Of a DNA stretch of 32,000 nt, positions 9,582 to 17,216 are shown in pieces. The stretch's first letter is position 1; each line of letters starts with the position of its first letter. This DNA is from Candidatus Heimdallarchaeota archaeon (GTDB lineage: Archaea > Asgardarchaeota > Heimdallarchaeia > JABLTI01). The notes beneath the pieces are model-generated. The model was given only the letters and a program-made list of their open reading frames with translations, ran no database searches and had not been told where the DNA came from. Where the stretch lies: NCBI GenBank assembly GCA_030614005.1, contig JAUWKS010000010.1, positions 30,001 to 62,000 of the forward strand. Direction: 5' to 3'. The translations under genes were made by a program, and so were the position numbers.

Positions 9582-11540
9582 TTACACTCTCTTTCTCTTT
9601 ACTGAAACAATAATAACAATAGTGAGTATTAATACTAATGTACCACCACCAGCACCTAAAATAATATAGAATGTTGTTGACTGGAAGAAATTTGGTTCAG
9701 ATGATGTTGTTGGTAAATTTTGTACAGTTATTGATATTGTATCTGATGACGACAATCCAACATTGTCAAATAGAGTTACTTGTATTGTATATGTCCCTAA
9801 TTCGTCTAAACTTAACAGATAAGTCGTAATTGGCATATTTACTGTAGCTTCCAATACAGAGTTCACTCTTACTTCTGCATAATCATATCCTGATGAGCTA
9901 TCAACAAAGTTCCAATCGATTTGAACATCACCAGGTTCCATTACATAATCATCATCTGGTGCAGTGATTATCACTGTAGGATTTGTTGAATCAATATTGA
10001 TTTGGAAATGAACAGGATCTGCTATATTCCCTGCACCATCTAAAGTTGAAATATGAGCATACCATATTCCATCAGTTAACGTTGTTGATATACTACTTGA
10101 TGATGTAAATGTACTGCTAATTGTTGGCACTGTTGATGGATTATGGTCTACTACAATATAATACCCATTAACACCATTGACGTCAAATGGGGCATTCATG
10201 TTAAAAGTAGGACTTAGGTTAGTATACCATTCTGAAGGGTTTGCATGTGGTGTAACAGTTACGTCAGGTTGATAAACAGTACAATCATAATCTATTGTCA
10301 GGAAAGGATCACCTAAAATAACCATACCGTAAAACCATTCTAAATAATCAGATGGGGATACGGTTGTTATTGTTTGGAACCAATCTTCGAAAGCTTGACC
10401 AATAGTTTTGTCTAGAGCTAAAGGATCATAGAATGTTGCCCCGCCAAACATACCACCAGTTTTTGATGTGCCAATTACTGCTATTGAGCCGTTTCCTGAA
10501 TAAAGATATGTCGTTGCTAAACAATCCGCAGCAATAGTATCTGCTCCTGAACAACAATACAAATTGTAAAAGTTTGCTGCAGGAATTGCTGCATGGATTT
10601 GAGCTGAAGTAACAGTTCCTTCACCAATACCTCCTGGACCAAAATAATGTTGAGCAGGCGATGAACCACTATGAACTGCAAGATGTACCCATTCATAATT
10701 TTGAGTCATCTTAGTCAACCAATCAGCAGCCGTTGTTAAAGTTGCTGGTGTATGGATATCTGTTCTTGTTGGGTAAGCATTATTCAACCAAGCGGGCCAA
10801 TTGTCATATGTGCCATTTGCCCATGCTTGCCAATCATCATCGATATAGGTCATAGCTTGATGAGTTCTAGCATTAGTACCTATACGATAATTATGAATTT
10901 TAGTTAGTAAATTAACGATGTCTTGATCATTAGATAATCCACCTAGCGTTCTTGACGTAGCATCTATTCGTCCAAGATAAATTTCTGGATAAATATCACC
11001 TGTACCAGCTGAGTGTATATCATAAATACCATCTGGTTCGGTATCAGTCCATGTGCCGTCCAAATCAGTTAGAAATAATTCACATAGAAAAGTTTCAGCT
11101 GCCCAAGGAATTGTTCCAGTTTTTGCCGGATGGTAAAATAAAGCAGATGGCAAATTACCTATTAAAACAACACCTGATATGCCAAAATTAGTATACCAGA
11201 GAGAGATTTTAGTTTTTAATGCTACAATATTTGAAGCTCCTGTAGAATCTAAAACAACAGTATAACCAGTATAATTCAAATCTTGAGCATATTGGTTTAT
11301 TGCTGCTTGTGCTGCAGGCACCACCCAAATAGAAGGGTCAACAATTATTCCTACAGTTTCACCATTGTAACCTGAAACTTGTTTTAGTAAGGCTTTGGAA
11401 TCTATCTGCGCCCCAATTATTTCATTATGTAATGTAATACTCTCTGTTGATAATGGCGTTTTAGCACTTGCAAAACTGAGTGAGGAGAGTATTAACAATG
11501 ATAGTATAAGTATAAGAATTTTTGATTTAAATTTAGACAT
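9582..11540 (-). CDS. Membrane-anchored C25 (gingipain-like) cysteine peptidase
   Basis: 'GVVLIGNLP', 'LTDLDG', 'PEIYLGRI', putative catalytic His (VHSGS) and Cys (LYCCS), 'IAVIGTS', 'ILGDP'. Signal peptide, Ig-like domains, TM helix and KRKRV tail. Confidence 0.8.
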   Translation of the reverse strand: MSKFKSKILILILSLLILSSLSFASAKTPLSTESITLHNEIIGAQIDSKALLKQVSGYNGETVGIIVDPSIWVVPAAQAAINQYAQDLNYTGYTVVLDSTGASNIVALKTKISLWYTNFGISGVVLIGNLPSALFYHPAKTGTIPWAAETFLCELFLTDLDGTWTDTEPDGIYDIHSAGTGDIYPEIYLGRIDATSRTLGGLSNDQDIVNLLTKIHNYRIGTNARTHQAMTYIDDDWQAWANGTYDNWPAWLNNAYPTRTDIHTPATLTTAADWLTKMTQNYEWVHLAVHSGSSPAQHYFGPGGIGEGTVTSAQIHAAIPAANFYNLYCCSGADTIAADCLATTYLYSGNGSIAVIGTSKTGGMFGGATFYDPLALDKTIGQAFEDWFQTITTVSPSDYLEWFYGMVILGDPFLTIDYDCTVYQPDVTVTPHANPSEWYTNLSPTFNMNAPFDVNGVNGYYIVVDHNPSTVPTISSTFTSSSSISTTLTDGIWYAHISTLDGAGNIADPVHFQINIDSTNPTVIITAPDDDYVMEPGDVQIDWNFVDSSSGYDYAEVRVNSVLEATVNMPITTYLLSLDELGTYTIQVTLFDNVGLSSSDTISITVQNLPTTSSEPNFFQSTTFYIILGAGGGTLVLILTIVIIVSVKRKRV

Positions 11541-11632: not shown

Positions 11633-11722
11633 TCAGATTGATTGTTTATAGTTCAGAATATAGACATAACCTAGACTGTCTCCACATACAATTGTATTTT
11701 TATCTTTAACATCTAACCTGCT
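11633..11722 (-). pseudogene. Possible C-terminal remnant of a WD40-repeat protein
   Basis: SRLDVKDKNTIVCGDSLGYVYILNYKQSI* resembles the terminal 'xGDxxGxVx(I/F)L' WD40 blade. No start codon, and the match is short. Confidence 0.3.
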
Positions 11723-11829: not shown

Positions 11830-13848
11830 TTACTCCTCGATAAATTTCTTTATTCCTTTTTCAGTATTTGGTACAGCAATTATTTCAGAAAGCATCGAAT
11901 TTTTCTTATCAGGTTGAAGAGCAAGATTCCATTCCACATTCTGTAATAAATAATCAGCAGAACCACCACTTTCAGCGACTAAACCAACTTGTGCACAAAG
12001 TAGAATTGCTAAACGATATTCAAAGGATGATATCTTTCCTCCAGCAAAACCCAAAACCTTAACATCTTCAGGTTTGATTTTATTCTGCAGAATATTTTTC
12101 CAATAAGTTATTACTTGTCGAATGCTAAAATTATTACCAGTCGTTTTAACAATCTGTGTGTACCTGGAATCTATCTGAACCTCTTCCGGAATATTCTCTG
12201 GAACAAATCCTATTGATTTAATGTTTTTAGCATATTTTTCTTGTAAATCTCCAACTATACCACAAACTCCACCTAACGTTCCACCTGAAATCAGTGTTCC
12301 TGTATACTTTGGAAATGATTTAAGCAATTTTTCTTTGAATAAATTGATACTCTCATTAGATGAGATTGTTGAACTACCAGCTAATATGATAATTGGTAAT
12401 TCCATTGAGAGAACATCAGTATTAGACTTTAGAAACTCATCTTTTATTTTTTGATTTCCAAATTTATACGCAGCACCTATTGTCAATAGGTCTTCAATAA
12501 ATGATAAATCAGGTAATTTCTCTCGAACAACATCGAAAAGAGAGAGGGTTTTCAAAGTAGTAGCAATCATCCAACTTTCGCTGCTATACTTTATTGCTGC
12601 TAAATAATTATTATAAGCTACCTCGCTTTCCCCAATGAGCATGTGTAAAAGGCCAATATCAAAATATGCCCAAGGTAAATTGATTTTGTGATTTATTTGC
12701 TTTTGACATTTCTCTATCACTTTTCGAATGATTGAATACGTAAAACTAATGAAACCCAAGCTTTTCTGTTTTTTTATTTCAAGTGCAAGATAGTTTGTTG
12801 TAGCATAAGGGTTAGAAGGTTCAATTTCGGATGCTTTGCGATAGTAATTCAAAGCCTTCTCTTCATCAATCTCTTTCCATTGACCACCAAGGACACAATA
12901 CGTATCTGCATCTTCGGGATTAATTTCTAATGCTTTTTCTAAATAGCTAATTCCCTTTTGATAATCTTCACTTTCTACTTCATTCTTTTTACACAATGCC
13001 AAACCAATTTCCCGCAAGATAATACTATTATTGCTATCAATAAAAGCAGATAAAATCTCAATCATTTTATCCCATTTTTCCACGTATCTTAACAGATAGG
13101 CATAACGGATTACAGTGGAGATATCTGTTTGGTCAGCTTTAAACACAATAGACATTTTTTCTAGCTCTTTTTCTAATTGCTCCCCAGATAGATATGCACC
13201 ATAATTTTCCTGAAAATCAGTCATATCATTTATCATTTCTTGAAAGTCATGATCAGTGCTTTCTAAAACAGCTGCCACTCGATAAGATTTTCTTTGTAAA
13301 TGTTTAGGAATAGTGAAATCGCCTTTATATTGTGTATCATGTTGTATTTGAGCCCAACCATGCTGGAGAAGTGTTCGAATTTGAATTTCAATAGAAAAGT
13401 CATAAAACCGTTCCGGAAAGGTTAAACCATCAAGTAAAGAACTACCTTTTTTCAAGCGGATAATATAATGATTTGAAAGATAGCCAAATTCGCTGACACT
13501 TAGTCTTTCTAATTTATCTTCACTGTGTTCAAGACTAATAATAAAATTCTGCTCAATAACTTCACAAGTCTTCTTGACATCATCAATTGAATCAAGAATA
13601 ATTCGTGATCCACAGAGATCAGTCATATCTTCAATGGGATTTGAGTATTTGTCTATTTTTCTAAAAATCTTCTCAGAAAAACTCGCAATTGTTTTTGCAC
13701 GTGCTTGAATGATACCATGAAGAGAGTATTGTTTTAGCAATTTTGACAGTACTTTCTTTATCAATTCAGCATATTCTATGTAATCTCCTCTTTTTTCTTT
13801 AAAGAGAGCTATTTGTGTTTCAATAAAATCTTGCTGTTGTTTTATCAT
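11830..13848 (-). CDS. RelA/SpoT-type nucleotide pyrophosphokinase domain fused to TPR (TPR-S/DUF4071-like) and C-terminal SLOG (LOG/Smf-DprA) domain
   Basis: Synthetase motifs R50AKTIASFSEK60, D77LCGSR, GY123LSNH127, E154IQIRTLLQHGWAQIQH170. TPR 'DTYCVLGGQWKE...ALNYYRKA..EPSNPYATTNYLAL'. SLOG-like 'IIILAG', 'LISGGTLGGV', 'SIGFVP', 'GGKISSFEYRLA'. Confidence 0.85.
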   Translation of the reverse strand: MIKQQQDFIETQIALFKEKRGDYIEYAELIKKVLSKLLKQYSLHGIIQARAKTIASFSEKIFRKIDKYSNPIEDMTDLCGSRIILDSIDDVKKTCEVIEQNFIISLEHSEDKLERLSVSEFGYLSNHYIIRLKKGSSLLDGLTFPERFYDFSIEIQIRTLLQHGWAQIQHDTQYKGDFTIPKHLQRKSYRVAAVLESTDHDFQEMINDMTDFQENYGAYLSGEQLEKELEKMSIVFKADQTDISTVIRYAYLLRYVEKWDKMIEILSAFIDSNNSIILREIGLALCKKNEVESEDYQKGISYLEKALEINPEDADTYCVLGGQWKEIDEEKALNYYRKASEIEPSNPYATTNYLALEIKKQKSLGFISFTYSIIRKVIEKCQKQINHKINLPWAYFDIGLLHMLIGESEVAYNNYLAAIKYSSESWMIATTLKTLSLFDVVREKLPDLSFIEDLLTIGAAYKFGNQKIKDEFLKSNTDVLSMELPIIILAGSSTISSNESINLFKEKLLKSFPKYTGTLISGGTLGGVCGIVGDLQEKYAKNIKSIGFVPENIPEEVQIDSRYTQIVKTTGNNFSIRQVITYWKNILQNKIKPEDVKVLGFAGGKISSFEYRLAILLCAQVGLVAESGGSADYLLQNVEWNLALQPDKKNSMLSEIIAVPNTEKGIKKFIEE

Positions 13849-13958
13849 GCGAGTTCACTTGGTATTTTATAGGTTCTCAAGAAAATTCACTATTAAAAAT
13901 TCTTTTTGTTAATAACATAATCTTAAGATATAAAAAAAGGGAAAAAGTAAGAAAGAAA

Positions 13959-16900
13959 TCATCGTTTCTTTCTTATTAATGCTAGAGCTAACACTGCAAC
14001 AATGGGTAATAGAGCAAGTAATGTAGTATTACTAGTTGAATGCGCGAGAACTGTAAAGCTGTAATAAGCGCCTCCGTTGTCGTCTGTTGCGGTATTAGTA
14101 TTTGGTGAATCATCTGTTGCTGTGATATAAAATTCAATTAAATCAGCAGCAGCAAATGTACCAATTGTTGTTTTGTATTGATCACCTGAAATGAGAAGCA
14201 TTGTTGTTGTTGTCCAAGTTCCTCCGTTTGTTCTGTAGTGAAGAACAACTGAACTGATTCCGTTTAGGTCACTCACTGTACAAGTGATATTTACTAAATC
14301 AGTATCAGAAGGTGCATTTGGATTATATTCAATGTCACTAATCGTTGGTGCTGTAACATCACTAGAAGCAATGGTGAAAGTGTAGTAATTTCCAGAATTA
14401 TCGTCTGTAGCATTGTTGTGCGTTATATAAGAATCAGTTGCGTTGATATAATATTCAATATCTGCAGCATAAGCAAAAGAACCGATTGATACTTCATAGG
14501 TACTTCCAGTGGTGAGGGTCATACTTGCATCTGTCCAAGAACCACTATTCACTCTATAATAGAGGGTAACGGATTGAACACCACTTAGATCAGTAACAGC
14601 GCAGCTAATAATTACGGTTTCTGCATCTGTAGGATTTGTGGGAGTATGAACTATATCATTTATCGTTGGACCGGAAACATCACTTGCACCTATGGTGAAG
14701 CTATAATATGAACCACCATTATTATCGGTTGCAATATTGTGTGTTTCATAATTGTCAACAGCTGTGATATAATATTCTATGAAATCTTCATACGCAAATA
14801 AACCAATAGTTGCATTATAGGTGCTATCAACAATATTCGTCATTGATACACTCATCCAATCACCGCCATCTATTCTGTAGTAGAGAGTAACGGATTGAAC
14901 ACCACTTGGATCTGTAACATCGCAGTTTATAGTTATAGTTTCAAGTTCTGTTGGTGTTGCTGGTTGGTGTAAAATGTTTTCAATTGTTGGTCCGTCAATA
15001 TCACTCGCTTCAATGGTGAAACTGTAATATATGCCACTATTGTCATCTGTTGCTTCATTGTGGTTTGGAGAATCATCTACTGCGACAATATAGTACTCTA
15101 TTTCATCATCATAAGCAAATGATCCAATTGTTGCTTCGTAGGTAGAACCAGATGTAAAGGTCATACTGACATCAGTCCAAGAACCACCATTGATGCGATA
15201 ATATAATGTAACCGATTGAATACCATTAGCATCATAAACATCACAACTGATTGTTATTGTTTCAGTGTCATTAGCTGGTTCAGGAGTCTGTGAAATAGCT
15301 GAAATGGTTGGTCCGGTAACGTCGCTTGAAACAACGGTGAAGCTGTAATATGCTCCTCCATTATCTTCTGTGGCAATATTAGGATTGATACATGAATCAT
15401 TGGCTGAGATGAAAAATTCGACTAAATCATCATAGGTAAATGTTCCTAAACTTACTTCATATTGATTGTCAATAGCCCATATCATGGTGATATTCGTCCA
15501 TTCTCCACTATTAACACGATAGTGTAGAGTAACTATATCGAGACCATTGCTATCTGTAACATTGCAATAAACAAACACTTCTTCTAAATCGGTTGGAGAG
15601 GGGTCAAATACTACATCAGTTATTTCTGGTGCTGTTGTATCGACTTGGAAATTCCAAACATCGCTCCAATCACCCCAATTTTCAGCGCCGTCTTTTGCGC
15701 GAACACGCCAATAATAAACATCATCATCCAATGAAGTTATTGCAGTATAATATGTATCAGTTGTGTATATAGCTATTGCTGTGCTCAAAAAGTCTGTGTC
15801 ATTATCTACTTGCAACTGATAAAGTACCGCTCCAGTTTCAGAAGACCATTCCAAGTATGGTGTTGGATCACTATCTATTGAATTATTGCTGGGTGTTAAT
15901 AGTGTTAATGTTGCTGGTGGTGTAGTGTCAATTTCAAAATGCCAAGTTGTACTCCAAGATCCCCAATTACCTGCGGCATCTCGTGCTTGAACACGCCAAT
16001 AATAGGTGTTTTCACCTAATGTCGTACAAGTGTAACTGCTAGAAGATGTATAGTAATTAACATTTAGTGAGCTAAAATCAGCATTATTATCTACTTGAAC
16101 ATGGTATTGCGTTGCTGTAGCCACTGTTGACCAATCAAGATACGGTGTTTGATCATTAGTCATTGTTCCGTCTGTAGGTGCAAATAATGTCGGAATACCC
16201 GGTGCTATATTATCAATAGTGAAATATCTATAAGAACTAAAACTACCCCAAGATCCTCGATAATCTTGTGCACGAACGCGCCAATACCAAGTATCACTTG
16301 ATAGTGTAAATGTGCGAGAAGTTCCTGCAAGGCTATAACTATATGGACTACTGAAACTTGGGTTATCATCCACTTGAACATTATATGCTGATGCAGTTGA
16401 TTTTGCGTTCCAACTTAAAGTTAAGGTGCTAGACTGTGTTAAGTATCCATTATATGGTGAATTCAAAGATGGTGGTGTGGTGTCAACTCTGAAATATTTA
16501 TAAGAACTATAACTGCCCCAATTTCCTAATGAATCTTGTGCACAAACACGCCAATACCAATTTCTATTTGATAAAGCAGAGGACCAATAACAATAAGTAT
16601 TTGATGTAGTTATAGTATTTGCACCAGTGAAACCTGAGTTATCAGCCACTTGAAGCTTGTATAGTACTGCAGTTGAAGATGGACCCCAATCTAAATATGG
16701 TGTTGAATCATATATTGTTGATCCATACGATGGTGAATATAAAGTTGGTGGGTTTGGCCCTGTTGAATCAAGAGTGAAATGCCATTCAGAACTCCACACA
16801 CTCCAAAAACCCCATTCATTATACGACCGAACTCGCCAATAATAAGTATCATCATTTAAATGATCACATTCGATATAAGTAGTATATCCTGTACCAACAT

Positions 16901-17216
16901 CTGTTATTTCATTAAATTCCATACTTGAAAAATCAGCATTATTATCTACTTGGATTCGATAGCGAATTGAGTCAGATACATAATTCCAGTCTAATACTGG
17001 TGTGTCATCAATTATGGTTGCTCCATTAGAAGGACTATGCAGTGTTGGTGCGTCAATTAGGGGAGAAAAGCCAGGATTGTCACCAATTGGTTCTCCAAGG
17101 GCATCAACTTGAATATTTGATGCTTGTTCAGCGTTCACAGATAAAGTGCTAGGTAATGTCATACATAAAATAAATATTATTACCATTAGTTTTGTAAAAG
17201 GTATACTCTTCCTCAA
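13959..17216 (-). CDS. Large secreted surface protein: 5 fibronectin type III-like repeats, 5 Ig-like repeats and a C-terminal TM anchor
   Basis: TTG start with GGAGTGG SD, signal peptide, repeats as listed separately, and LLALLPIVAVLALAL-IRKKR tail. Confidence 0.85.
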   Translation of the reverse strand: MRKSIPFTKLMVIIFILCMTLPSTLSVNAEQASNIQVDALGEPIGDNPGFSPLIDAPTLHSPSNGATIIDDTPVLDWNYVSDSIRYRIQVDNNADFSSMEFNEITDVGTGYTTYIECDHLNDDTYYWRVRSYNEWGFWSVWSSEWHFTLDSTGPNPPTLYSPSYGSTIYDSTPYLDWGPSSTAVLYKLQVADNSGFTGANTITTSNTYCYWSSALSNRNWYWRVCAQDSLGNWGSYSSYKYFRVDTTPPSLNSPYNGYLTQSSTLTLSWNAKSTASAYNVQVDDNPSFSSPYSYSLAGTSRTFTLSSDTWYWRVRAQDYRGSWGSFSSYRYFTIDNIAPGIPTLFAPTDGTMTNDQTPYLDWSTVATATQYHVQVDNNADFSSLNVNYYTSSSSYTCTTLGENTYYWRVQARDAAGNWGSWSTTWHFEIDTTPPATLTLLTPSNNSIDSDPTPYLEWSSETGAVLYQLQVDNDTDFLSTAIAIYTTDTYYTAITSLDDDVYYWRVRAKDGAENWGDWSDVWNFQVDTTAPEITDVVFDPSPTDLEEVFVYCNVTDSNGLDIVTLHYRVNSGEWTNITMIWAIDNQYEVSLGTFTYDDLVEFFISANDSCINPNIATEDNGGAYYSFTVVSSDVTGPTISAISQTPEPANDTETITISCDVYDANGIQSVTLYYRINGGSWTDVSMTFTSGSTYEATIGSFAYDDEIEYYIVAVDDSPNHNEATDDNSGIYYSFTIEASDIDGPTIENILHQPATPTELETITINCDVTDPSGVQSVTLYYRIDGGDWMSVSMTNIVDSTYNATIGLFAYEDFIEYYITAVDNYETHNIATDNNGGSYYSFTIGASDVSGPTINDIVHTPTNPTDAETVIISCAVTDLSGVQSVTLYYRVNSGSWTDASMTLTTGSTYEVSIGSFAYAADIEYYINATDSYITHNNATDDNSGNYYTFTIASSDVTAPTISDIEYNPNAPSDTDLVNITCTVSDLNGISSVVLHYRTNGGTWTTTTMLLISGDQYKTTIGTFAAADLIEFYITATDDSPNTNTATDDNGGAYYSFTVLAHSTSNTTLLALLPIVAVLALALIRKKR
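14046..15626 (-). repeat. Five tandem ~107 aa Ig-like modules
   Basis: Consensus I.dI...P..p.d.e.v.i.C.V.D.sG...VtLyYr.n.G.W....M......Ye..iG.F.y.d.ieyyi.A.D...n.n.AtddN.G.yYsFt. At DNA level 14560-14603 and 14881-14924 match at 40/44 nt, 321 nt apart. Confidence 0.9.
15627..17051 (-). repeat. Five tandem FN3-like modules
   Basis: Each has P.L..P.......P.L.W.....Y..QV.(D/N)...F and (Y/W)YWRV.(A/S)...W..(W/Y/F)S....F..D. Confidence 0.9.

Follow-up and report, generated by a model that had tools for sequence, protein, structure and literature searches.

This locus raises the question of what a RelA/SpoT enzyme, joined in one chain to a tetratricopeptide repeat (TPR) array and a SLOG domain, is doing in an Asgard archaeon; we know of no stringent response in these organisms. 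The gene lies in a 32,000-nucleotide stretch of a Candidatus Heimdallarchaeota contig, referred to here as the window, and its 672-residue product is called P0001. A sequence-only reading of the window had drawn attention to an intact open reading frame on the minus strand at positions 11830–13848, where we find it exactly, and had supposed the host to be an archaeon. The proteins closest to P0001, at 97% and 65% identity (the latter designated P0003), indeed come from metagenome-assembled genomes labelled Heimdallarchaeota, followed by Promethearchaeota proteins at about 40%, and the phylum-level relatives of the genome are Asgard archaea. The feature is real and its three domains are correctly called, as set out below.

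P0001 is a member of the RelA/SpoT superfamily, of the small alarmone synthetase (SAS) class. Pfam RelA_SpoT matches residues 50–176 with an E-value of 2e-17 and a score of 63.9 bits (cut-off 27), and the only NCBIfam models matched are of SAS and TPR type. Residues 13–212 match the SAS1/SAS2/RelP folds, led by PDB entry 5dec (Z 18.1, with a root-mean-square deviation of 2.7 Å over 180 aligned residues) and followed by 6fgk (Z 17.6) and 6ewz (Z 17.5), and Foldseek gives TM scores of up to 0.81 for this fold. The four synthetase motifs described in the sequence-only reading are all present at the residues it named: R50-K52-S56-K60, D77-G80-R82, Y123-S125-H127 and E154-Q156-R158-T159, the last continued by H163-W165. 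Across about 100 homologues, RxKxxxSxxxK, DxxGxR, GYxSxH and ExQxRT are invariant or at least 96% conserved, and D77, G80, R82, H127, E154, Q156 and H163 do not vary in the family. No HD, TGS or ACT domain was found in Pfam and NCBIfam scans, as had been claimed. On the strength of these intact motifs, P0001 is predicted to be an apparently active ppGpp-synthetase-type enzyme. In a search of the PDB with a profile of the family synthetase domain, RelQ and RelP are matched at E-values of 1e-24 to 1e-16 and CapRel (7ztb) at 6e-10. RelQ and RelP (SAS1/SAS2; 5dec, 6fgk, 6ewz, 2be3) are the nearest relatives of residues 13–216 in sequence and fold and share all the catalytic motifs, but they are single-domain proteins of about 210–230 residues, vertically inherited in Firmicutes, whereas P0001 has some 450 extra residues of TPR and SLOG, and its gene is accessory in behaviour. 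This kinship, closer than that to CapRel, leans slightly, as weak sequence evidence, towards a nucleotide rather than a tRNA acceptor.

All three domains were assigned by fold from an AlphaFold2 model built on an alignment of 96 sequences, which is confident over its whole length (pLDDT 91.8, pTM 0.84), by exhaustive structural alignment against PDB representatives. Foldseek comparison of the whole model with the PDB yielded only SAS and TPR chains among the 50 matches listed, and a single-sequence prediction of residues 478–672 alone was unusable (pLDDT 38). The TPR section expected to follow the synthetase is there, spanning about 260 residues. The model is helical over residues 216–475, residues 213–477 match TPR proteins that include the central regulatory region of ASK1 (5ulm, Z 13.8), and Pfam TPR-S matches residues 259–356 at 34.4 bits (cut-off 27.6), alongside TPR_2 and TPR_8. 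Inside the Asgard clade the TPR sequences are conserved and not hypervariable.

Residues 484–672, which the sequence-only reading had called SLOG-like, match TM1055 (1rcu) with a Z of 18.3 and a deviation of 2.8 Å over 165 residues. Further matches are all to SLOG-domain folds: the LOG protein 1weh (Z 15.3), TRPM2 8sr7 (Z 15.0), 7aov (Z 14.9), TRPM7 and DprA 3uqz (Z 12.7). The Pfam family LSDAT_prok ('SLOG in TRPM, prokaryote') is matched by P0001 alone over residues 485–638, with an E-value of 0.0015 and 18.3–22.6 bits against a cut-off of 25.4; because this score is below threshold, the call for the single protein needs the support of the family and the fold. Both supply it. LSDAT_prok, and no other Pfam family, is matched by 46 of 57 SLOG segments from the family, with a best E-value of 1e-10, and in a search of the PDB with the family SLOG profile 12 of the 14 sequence matches are to the N-terminal regions of TRPM2 or TRPM7 (E 0.013–0.76). 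The expected motifs, G522-G523-T524-G527 and G603-G604 with E610, are present; together with G491 and G517 these positions are at least 89% conserved, and the glycine-rich loop aligns with the 'GGTxTG' segment of TRPM2. Taking the family-level matches with the modelled fold, we conclude that the C-terminal domain is a genuine SLOG domain of LSDAT/TRPM type. LSDAT is the SLOG family of the TRPM MHR1/2 region and binds ADP-ribose in TRPM2 (PMC13143021). Two positions set the Heimdall subclade (P0001, P0002 and P0003) apart: it carries Y548F and D585N/A where the family has tyrosine and aspartate in 92% of members. A further change, G618C, occurs in P0001 and P0002 only.

The occurrence of the gene is patchy. 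The genome containing the window (3.6 Mb in 126 contigs, 90% complete) holds a single RelA_SpoT domain and is alone among the 12 genomes in its taxonomic family in having one; elsewhere in the phylum, full-length homologues occur only in about 27 of the 135 genomes of one Lokiarchaeia-type family. A search of 1.84 billion proteins places 662 cluster representatives (50% identity; E ≤ 1e-30) in the wider family, and species-representative genomes, bacterial and archaeal, contribute more than 571 loci, with Chloroflexota, Gemmatimonadota, Planctomycetota, Actinomycetota and Desulfobacterota among the bacteria and Bathyarchaeia, Thermoplasmatota, Halobacteriota and methanogens among the archaea. 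In a maximum-likelihood tree, P0001 and P0003 are sister to a Promethearchaeota/Hodarchaeota clade; the Asgard clade as a whole (support 100) falls within bacterial sequences, and archaea of other groups turn up at scattered points of the tree. We conclude from this scatter that the gene has been transferred repeatedly between domains and is accessory rather than housekeeping. The core architecture of the family is RelA/SpoT, TPR-S and SLOG in about 670 residues. Members of the Asgard clade, P0001 included, consist of this bare core, without the C-terminal RyR domain added in most bacterial members (53 of the 76 loci sampled below) or the N-terminal NUDIX domain fused in some. One 629-residue homologue, P0103 (92% coverage, 29% identity), has the fungus Botryotinia convoluta as its annotated source, which would mean either transfer into a eukaryote or contamination.

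TPR-S and LSDAT_prok are already catalogued as Pfam families, and the names SLOG and LSDAT reportedly go back to Burroughs et al. (2015, Nucleic Acids Research). Full-text literature searches, whose coverage did not extend to the source paper for SLOG and LSDAT, found no description of, or experimental work on, a RelA/SpoT-TPR-SLOG protein. The classifications of RelA/SpoT homologues (RSH) do not mention TPR, and the later one does not mention RyR either. The window adds the family's minimal form, as found in archaea; an Asgard clade of that form whose partners are TPR-TIR or DUF4062 genes; and a solo copy.

The strongest indication of function comes from the genes around relatives of P0001. 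For Lokiarchaeia-type genomes, homologue coordinates were combined with genome-wide TIR_2 and DUF4062 matches, giving 22 assessable loci and five more truncated at contig ends. A TIR_2 or DUF4062 domain lies within 1 kb in 18 of the 22 and within 3 kb in 20; chance adjacency is negligible because these genomes hold only 1–13 TIR domains in 2–5 Mb. The usual arrangement is a TPR-TIR gene encoding about 800 residues, some 650 of them TPR with the TIR domain C-terminal, which ends 40–150 bp upstream on the same strand. Up to three tandem TPR-TIR paralogues stand directly 5′ of some Lokiarchaeial RelA-TPR-SLOG genes (L035:2509-9949; G213:C44:20761-26104), which suggests a diversified sensor or signal-generator arm. 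Closer to P0001, the partner is of DUF4062 type. The gene for P0003 has a DUF4062-nSTAND1-WD40 gene 104 bp downstream, and the immediate neighbours of that for P0004, a protein 46% identical to P0001, are a DUF4062-TPR gene and another RelA-TPR paralogue; a NUDIX gene and a PIN/RHH pair are also close by. DUF4062 (NIR) is a TIR-like NADase, releasing ADP-ribose and nicotinamide from nicotinamide adenine dinucleotide (NAD), and is found in antiphage systems (10.64898/2026.05.01.722283; 10.64898/2026.09.04.749371). On the P0004 contig (L031:5903-14570), the RelA/SpoT-TPR paralogues, of 667 and 837 residues, stand on either side of the DUF4062-TPR gene, whose product has 1221 residues; upstream are a 565-residue NUDIX protein, the PIN/RHH toxin-antitoxin pair and a PDDEXK gene. 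The region looks like a small archaeal defence island.

A further sample, 80 loci taken from species genomes of which 76 contain the gene, was analysed with iterated hidden Markov models built from the loci, representative neighbours being named by Pfam. The distance to TIR or DUF4062 is at most 3 kb in 35 of the 76 loci and at most 10 kb in 42. In 33 loci at least 5 kb of sequence is available to each side of the gene; 22 of these have TIR or DUF4062 within 5 kb, 26 have a partner of some kind and five are solo. The catalytic glutamate is retained in 98% of 42 partner TIR domains. In 40 of the 76 loci a small NUDIX gene is no more than 300 bp away, mostly directly upstream and co-oriented; its product is MutT/NudI/NudG-like rather than ADP-ribose-pyrophosphatase-like, which fits clearance of nucleoside polyphosphates, and it could act in the role of an antitoxin. 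Proteins of about 600 residues with TrkA_N and a C-terminal RyR domain are encoded in 14 loci and a SLATT_1 protein with two transmembrane segments in six; these are possible further effectors, the RyR module being common to the TrkA_N protein and the synthetase protein. STAND NTPases are among the other conflict-type neighbours.

These data bear on the possibility that P0001 is a physiological, non-immune alarmone synthetase, making (p)ppGpp as a stress or metabolic messenger while SLOG and TPR monitor a metabolite of the cell itself, such as ADP-ribose, or NAD status as an indicator of redox or energy state. The characterised proteins closest to it, RelQ and RelP, are housekeeping enzymes, the composition of its gene is close to that of the surroundings and the genome, it has no defence neighbours, and the five solo loci among the 33 fully flanked ones show that it is not alone in this. 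A physiological enzyme is nevertheless hard to reconcile with a gene present in one of 12 genomes of its own family and in about a fifth of the Lokiarchaeial one, transferred extensively between domains and strongly linked to TIR, DUF4062, STAND and SLATT genes. Nor was an HD-type hydrolase detected: profile searches of the 90%-complete genome found no HD_4 hydrolase, RyR or SLATT, an absence which that level of completeness leaves unproven. We consider the physiological explanation unlikely.

Instead, we propose that the P0001 family provides the sensor-effector of a TIR/NIR-linked, Thoeris-like nucleotide-signalling conflict system, a reading to which we give about an even chance of being correct. 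We infer its ligand, signalling direction, product and phenotype as follows. An invader would activate a TIR or DUF4062 (NIR) NADase through the TPR, WD40 or STAND sensor of that protein, generating an ADP-ribose-type nucleotide. The LSDAT-type SLOG domain of the RelA-TPR-SLOG protein would bind this nucleotide, and the TPR scaffold would transmit the resulting change or drive oligomerisation. The RelA/SpoT domain, thus switched on, would pyrophosphorylate a purine nucleotide, yielding (p)ppGpp or (p)ppApp, or with lower probability the 3′ end of a tRNA, and growth would be arrested. In bacterial relatives the MutT/NudG-like NUDIX partner would keep the output or the signal below threshold. 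The sequence-only reading had instead taken the gene for a self-contained, single-gene system and had allowed that SLOG reads the product of the synthetase itself. Neither idea is supported by the relatives, which are usually multi-gene, with TPR-TIR or DUF4062 partners and, in bacteria, NUDIX together with TIR or DUF4062; the solo P0001 copy itself may still act alone. Multi-gene modules of this kind point to an external, NAD-derived signal rather than the protein's own product as what SLOG reads.

In Thoeris, TIR domains make ADP-ribose-derived signals, and the SLOG domain of ThsA reads them. The likeness to Thoeris type I (ThsB, a TIR protein, with ThsA, SIR2-SLOG) extends to the logic and to two of three parts; it lies in the pairing of a TIR gene in relatives with a C-terminal SLOG fused to an enzymatic effector, in the presence of effector and SLOG in one chain, and in the patchy, horizontally transferred distribution. 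The differences are that the effector is a RelA/SpoT pyrophosphokinase and not SIR2 or Macro-TM, that the SLOG domain is of the LSDAT/TRPM family with a 260-residue TPR array in between, and that the TIR partner of relatives carries its long TPR section, bacterial forms adding NUDIX and RyR. No TIR gene is adjacent to the P0001 gene. The P0001 protein is Thoeris-like in its predicted logic but, given its effector, its SLOG family, the TIR architecture and the missing TIR gene, it is not a member of Thoeris.

The order of events could also be reversed, the TPR array binding an invader protein and the RelA/SpoT domain making the signal, which SLOG would then read or process (by feedback or base release), or which would activate neighbouring TIR/NIR-STAND, TrkA-RyR or SLATT effectors. 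The Pfam name of the repeat is 'TPR-Sensor', a LOG-like GG…E motif is retained in the SLOG domain, whose best fold match is a LOG-like protein, the NUDIX partner is of NTP-hydrolase type, and candidate effectors are at hand in the bacterial loci with SLATT or TrkA_N-RyR. Against this order, the TIR and DUF4062 partners have large sensor arrays of their own (TPR, WD40, STAND), characterised TIR and DUF4062 proteins are signal makers or terminal NADases and not receivers of nucleotides, and the Lokiarchaeial two-gene operons contain no further effector gene. A 510-residue homologue, P0269, provides another argument. It is a TPR-SLOG protein without RelA/SpoT, its SLOG domain 49% identical (L114:5155-6687; L115:8001-9533), and it sits between an 858-residue DUF4062 protein and an nSTAND1-NACHT STAND protein (DUF4062-bearing in L115), with TIR-LRR genes nearby in L115. 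The TPR-SLOG module thus tracks NADases independently of the effector domain, keeping its TIR/NIR neighbourhood even where RelA is missing, and P0269 could be an effector-less sensor or regulator. This was the one effector-less variant found in a homologue search with the SLOG domain alone, which turned up no variants with swapped effectors; a search with TPR and SLOG together was swamped by generic TPR proteins. Taking both sides together, we regard reversed polarity as distinctly unlikely.

Several points weigh against the sensor-effector reading. By both sequence and fold the synthetase domain is nearest to housekeeping enzymes and not to known toxic SAS. Given Y548F and D585N, ligand binding by the SLOG domain of P0001 may be altered or lost, and the domain is possibly enzymatic rather than sensory, considering the LOG-like best match to 1rcu and the conserved GGxxxxxE with E610. 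Some of the co-location with TIR/NIR genes could arise because both kinds of gene gather in defence islands, without a pathway in common. A DUF4062-STAND protein can constitute an entire defence by itself, acting by NAD depletion. At the locus itself, no TIR, DUF4062, NUDIX, RyR or SLATT gene lies close to the P0001 gene in the window, a profile search found no TIR or DUF4062 on its contig, and PADLOC matched none of nine neighbouring genes. The suggestion of a conflict or signalling system is supported through relatives, with their patchy, transferred distribution and their TIR, DUF4062, STAND and SLATT neighbours, but not by the surroundings of P0001, which are no recognisable defence island. 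Because this copy is solo, the functional claim for its locus rests on the relatives and any signal generator must act in trans.

Profile searches of the rest of the genome found only NUDIX genes of generic type on other contigs, a single weak TIR-like match and one DUF4062 gene. The last (contig C77:13306-16407; L113:8307-11408; plus strand) encodes a 1033-residue, Avs-like DUF4062-STAND-TPR protein and is, as a guess, the only candidate signal generator in trans, a further respect in which the sensor-effector reading is exposed. Over its full length the protein is homologous to the DUF4062-TPR neighbour of P0004 (28% identity, E 5e-78). It was also considered as a homologue of the DUF4062-nSTAND1-WD40 neighbour of P0003 and set aside, there being no significant similarity; PADLOC gave no match to it. 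Avs-type DUF4062 (NIR)-STAND-TPR NADases, of which this is one, are recurrent neighbours of the Heimdall-type relatives, but they are separate proteins whose characterised members work by depleting NAD, and they are not known to have a downstream reader protein.

The solo state invites comparison with toxins that work alone. In toxin-antitoxin and defence systems, synthetase-only RSH proteins are found as toxic effectors, making (pp)pApp or pyrophosphorylating tRNA, CapRel being an example (PMC7229694, PMC9712102, PMC11782079). P0001 resembles these toxic SAS (CapRel SJ46, FaRel, FaRel2, PhRel) as a synthetase-only RSH that would serve as a growth-arrest effector under the control of a fused or adjacent regulator; it differs in having neither a pseudo-ZFD nor an antitoxin gene, in its predicted gating by a nucleotide-binding SLOG domain instead of a viral protein or an antitoxin, and in a sequence nearer to RelQ/RelP than to CapRel. 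In a stand-alone sensor-toxin of CapRel type, the TPR/SLOG portion would auto-inhibit the synthetase until released by a viral protein, with no small-molecule signal. The absence of a partner in the genome's single copy fits such an arrangement, the compact model with its pTM of 0.84 suggests fixed contacts between domains, and CapRel is detectably related (E 6e-10). The PADLOC single-gene candidate PDC-S33 likewise matches the synthetase domain (E 7e-19), but only over profile positions 27–175, that is 149 of 349, the rest of the profile being different or unmatched. A conserved glycine-rich SLOG pocket and tight TIR/NIR linkage argue for a nucleotide ligand instead, and the TPR array is conserved within the Asgard clade rather than hypervariable. 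We find the CapRel-type explanation quite improbable.

A solo gene might also be a remnant, orphaned when its TIR/NIR partner was lost after transfer and now non-functional or drifting. No partner lies near it, and two near-invariant SLOG residues are altered in the Heimdall subclade. These substitutions are, however, common to P0003, which is 65% identical and has a DUF4062 neighbour, so they predate any orphaning; they may instead mark a change of ligand accompanying the switch from a TIR to a DUF4062 partner. Nothing interrupts the 672 codons, all catalytic motifs and most SLOG motifs are still present, and sediment and cold-seep metagenomes from several studies contain the gene at 99% identity or more. 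The chance that P0001 is such a remnant seems to us very slight.

A close parallel for the SLOG domain is the N-terminal MHR1/2 region of TRPM2 with its NUDT9-H domain. Both have an LSDAT SLOG domain (Z 13.3–15.0 to 6co7, 7aov and 8sr7), and the wider family of P0001 also pairs SLOG with NUDIX, fused or adjacent. In TRPM2 the output is an ion channel, whereas in the P0001 family it is an enzyme; the partner NUDIX is MutT/NudG-like and not NUDT9-like, and P0001 itself has no NUDIX partner. We propose tentatively, and with some doubt, a two-tier immune relay common to bacteria and archaea, in which an ADP-ribose-type signal from a NADase is read by a TRPM2-type SLOG domain and converted into a RelA/SpoT alarmone output. 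Were the relay correct, the prokaryotic SLOG module, with NUDIX and RyR where present, would be a functional antecedent of ADP-ribose gating in TRPM2. If the sensor-effector reading holds, RelA/SpoT alarmone synthesis would be a downstream effector of TIR/NAD-derived immune signalling, joining two separate fields of nucleotide signalling; Asgard archaea would gain an alarmone enzyme with a plausible role, that of immune effector; and there would be a tractable prokaryotic model for the ligand gating by LSDAT SLOG that opens animal TRPM2. The Lokiarchaeial two-gene operon of TPR-TIR and RelA-TPR-SLOG is the simplest system for reconstitution.

Table 1. The P0001 gene, its parts and related features (window positions unless a locus is named)
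Feature	Position	Strand	Basis
Complete RelA/SpoT-TPR-SLOG gene, P0001, 672 residues	11830..13848	(-)	Open reading frame list and translation
Stop codon of P0001 gene	11830-11832	(-)	
RelA/SpoT nucleotidyltransferase (small alarmone synthetase) domain, residues 13-216	13201..13812	(-)	Pfam, fold match, family profile
TPR array of some 12 helices (residues 217-477), with the Pfam TPR-S match	12418..13200	(-)	Pfam and model
SLOG domain, LSDAT (TRPM MHR1/2-like) family, residues 478-672, predicted nucleotide-ligand sensor	11833..12417	(-)	Fold and family profile
F548 codon, SLOG domain of P0001	12202-12204		
N585 codon, SLOG domain of P0001	12091-12093		
A+T-rich intergenic region, 110 bp, 5′ of P0001 gene	13849..13958	(-)	Sequence read directly
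Example bacterial loci with TrkA_N-RyR or SLATT_1 neighbours	L041:4653-6449, L044:8224-10008, L059:7718-9463		

The coordinates are collected in Table 1. The spacer 5′ of the gene probably holds a promoter of its own, judging by a TATA-like TTTTTAATA about 40–50 nt 5′ of the ATG; the upstream gene ends at 13959 in the open reading frame list. On both sides lie genes for large proteins with immunoglobulin-like and carbohydrate-binding modules (window 9582-11540 and 13959-17216, both minus strand, as is the P0001 gene), in which Pfam identifies Big_13, Ig_Rha78A_N, CBM_56 and Lmo2446-like_N. These are probably surface proteins without relation to the finding described here. The window contains no small co-oriented partner of antitoxin type, and no direct or terminal repeats were found around the gene. 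No RNA dataset containing the gene is listed among public runs.

Independent metagenome contigs from the sediment and cold-seep samples cover the gene, and the sample that holds it best also supports its junction with the upstream gene. Contigs from other samples do not all bridge the flanks, and gaps in such coverage prove nothing. Those that diverge do so about 115–145 bp downstream and 40–60 bp upstream of the gene (about 11686–11716 and 13885–13911), a pattern of sequence divergence which hints that a segment of about 2.2 kb carrying the P0001 gene differs in context between related strains.

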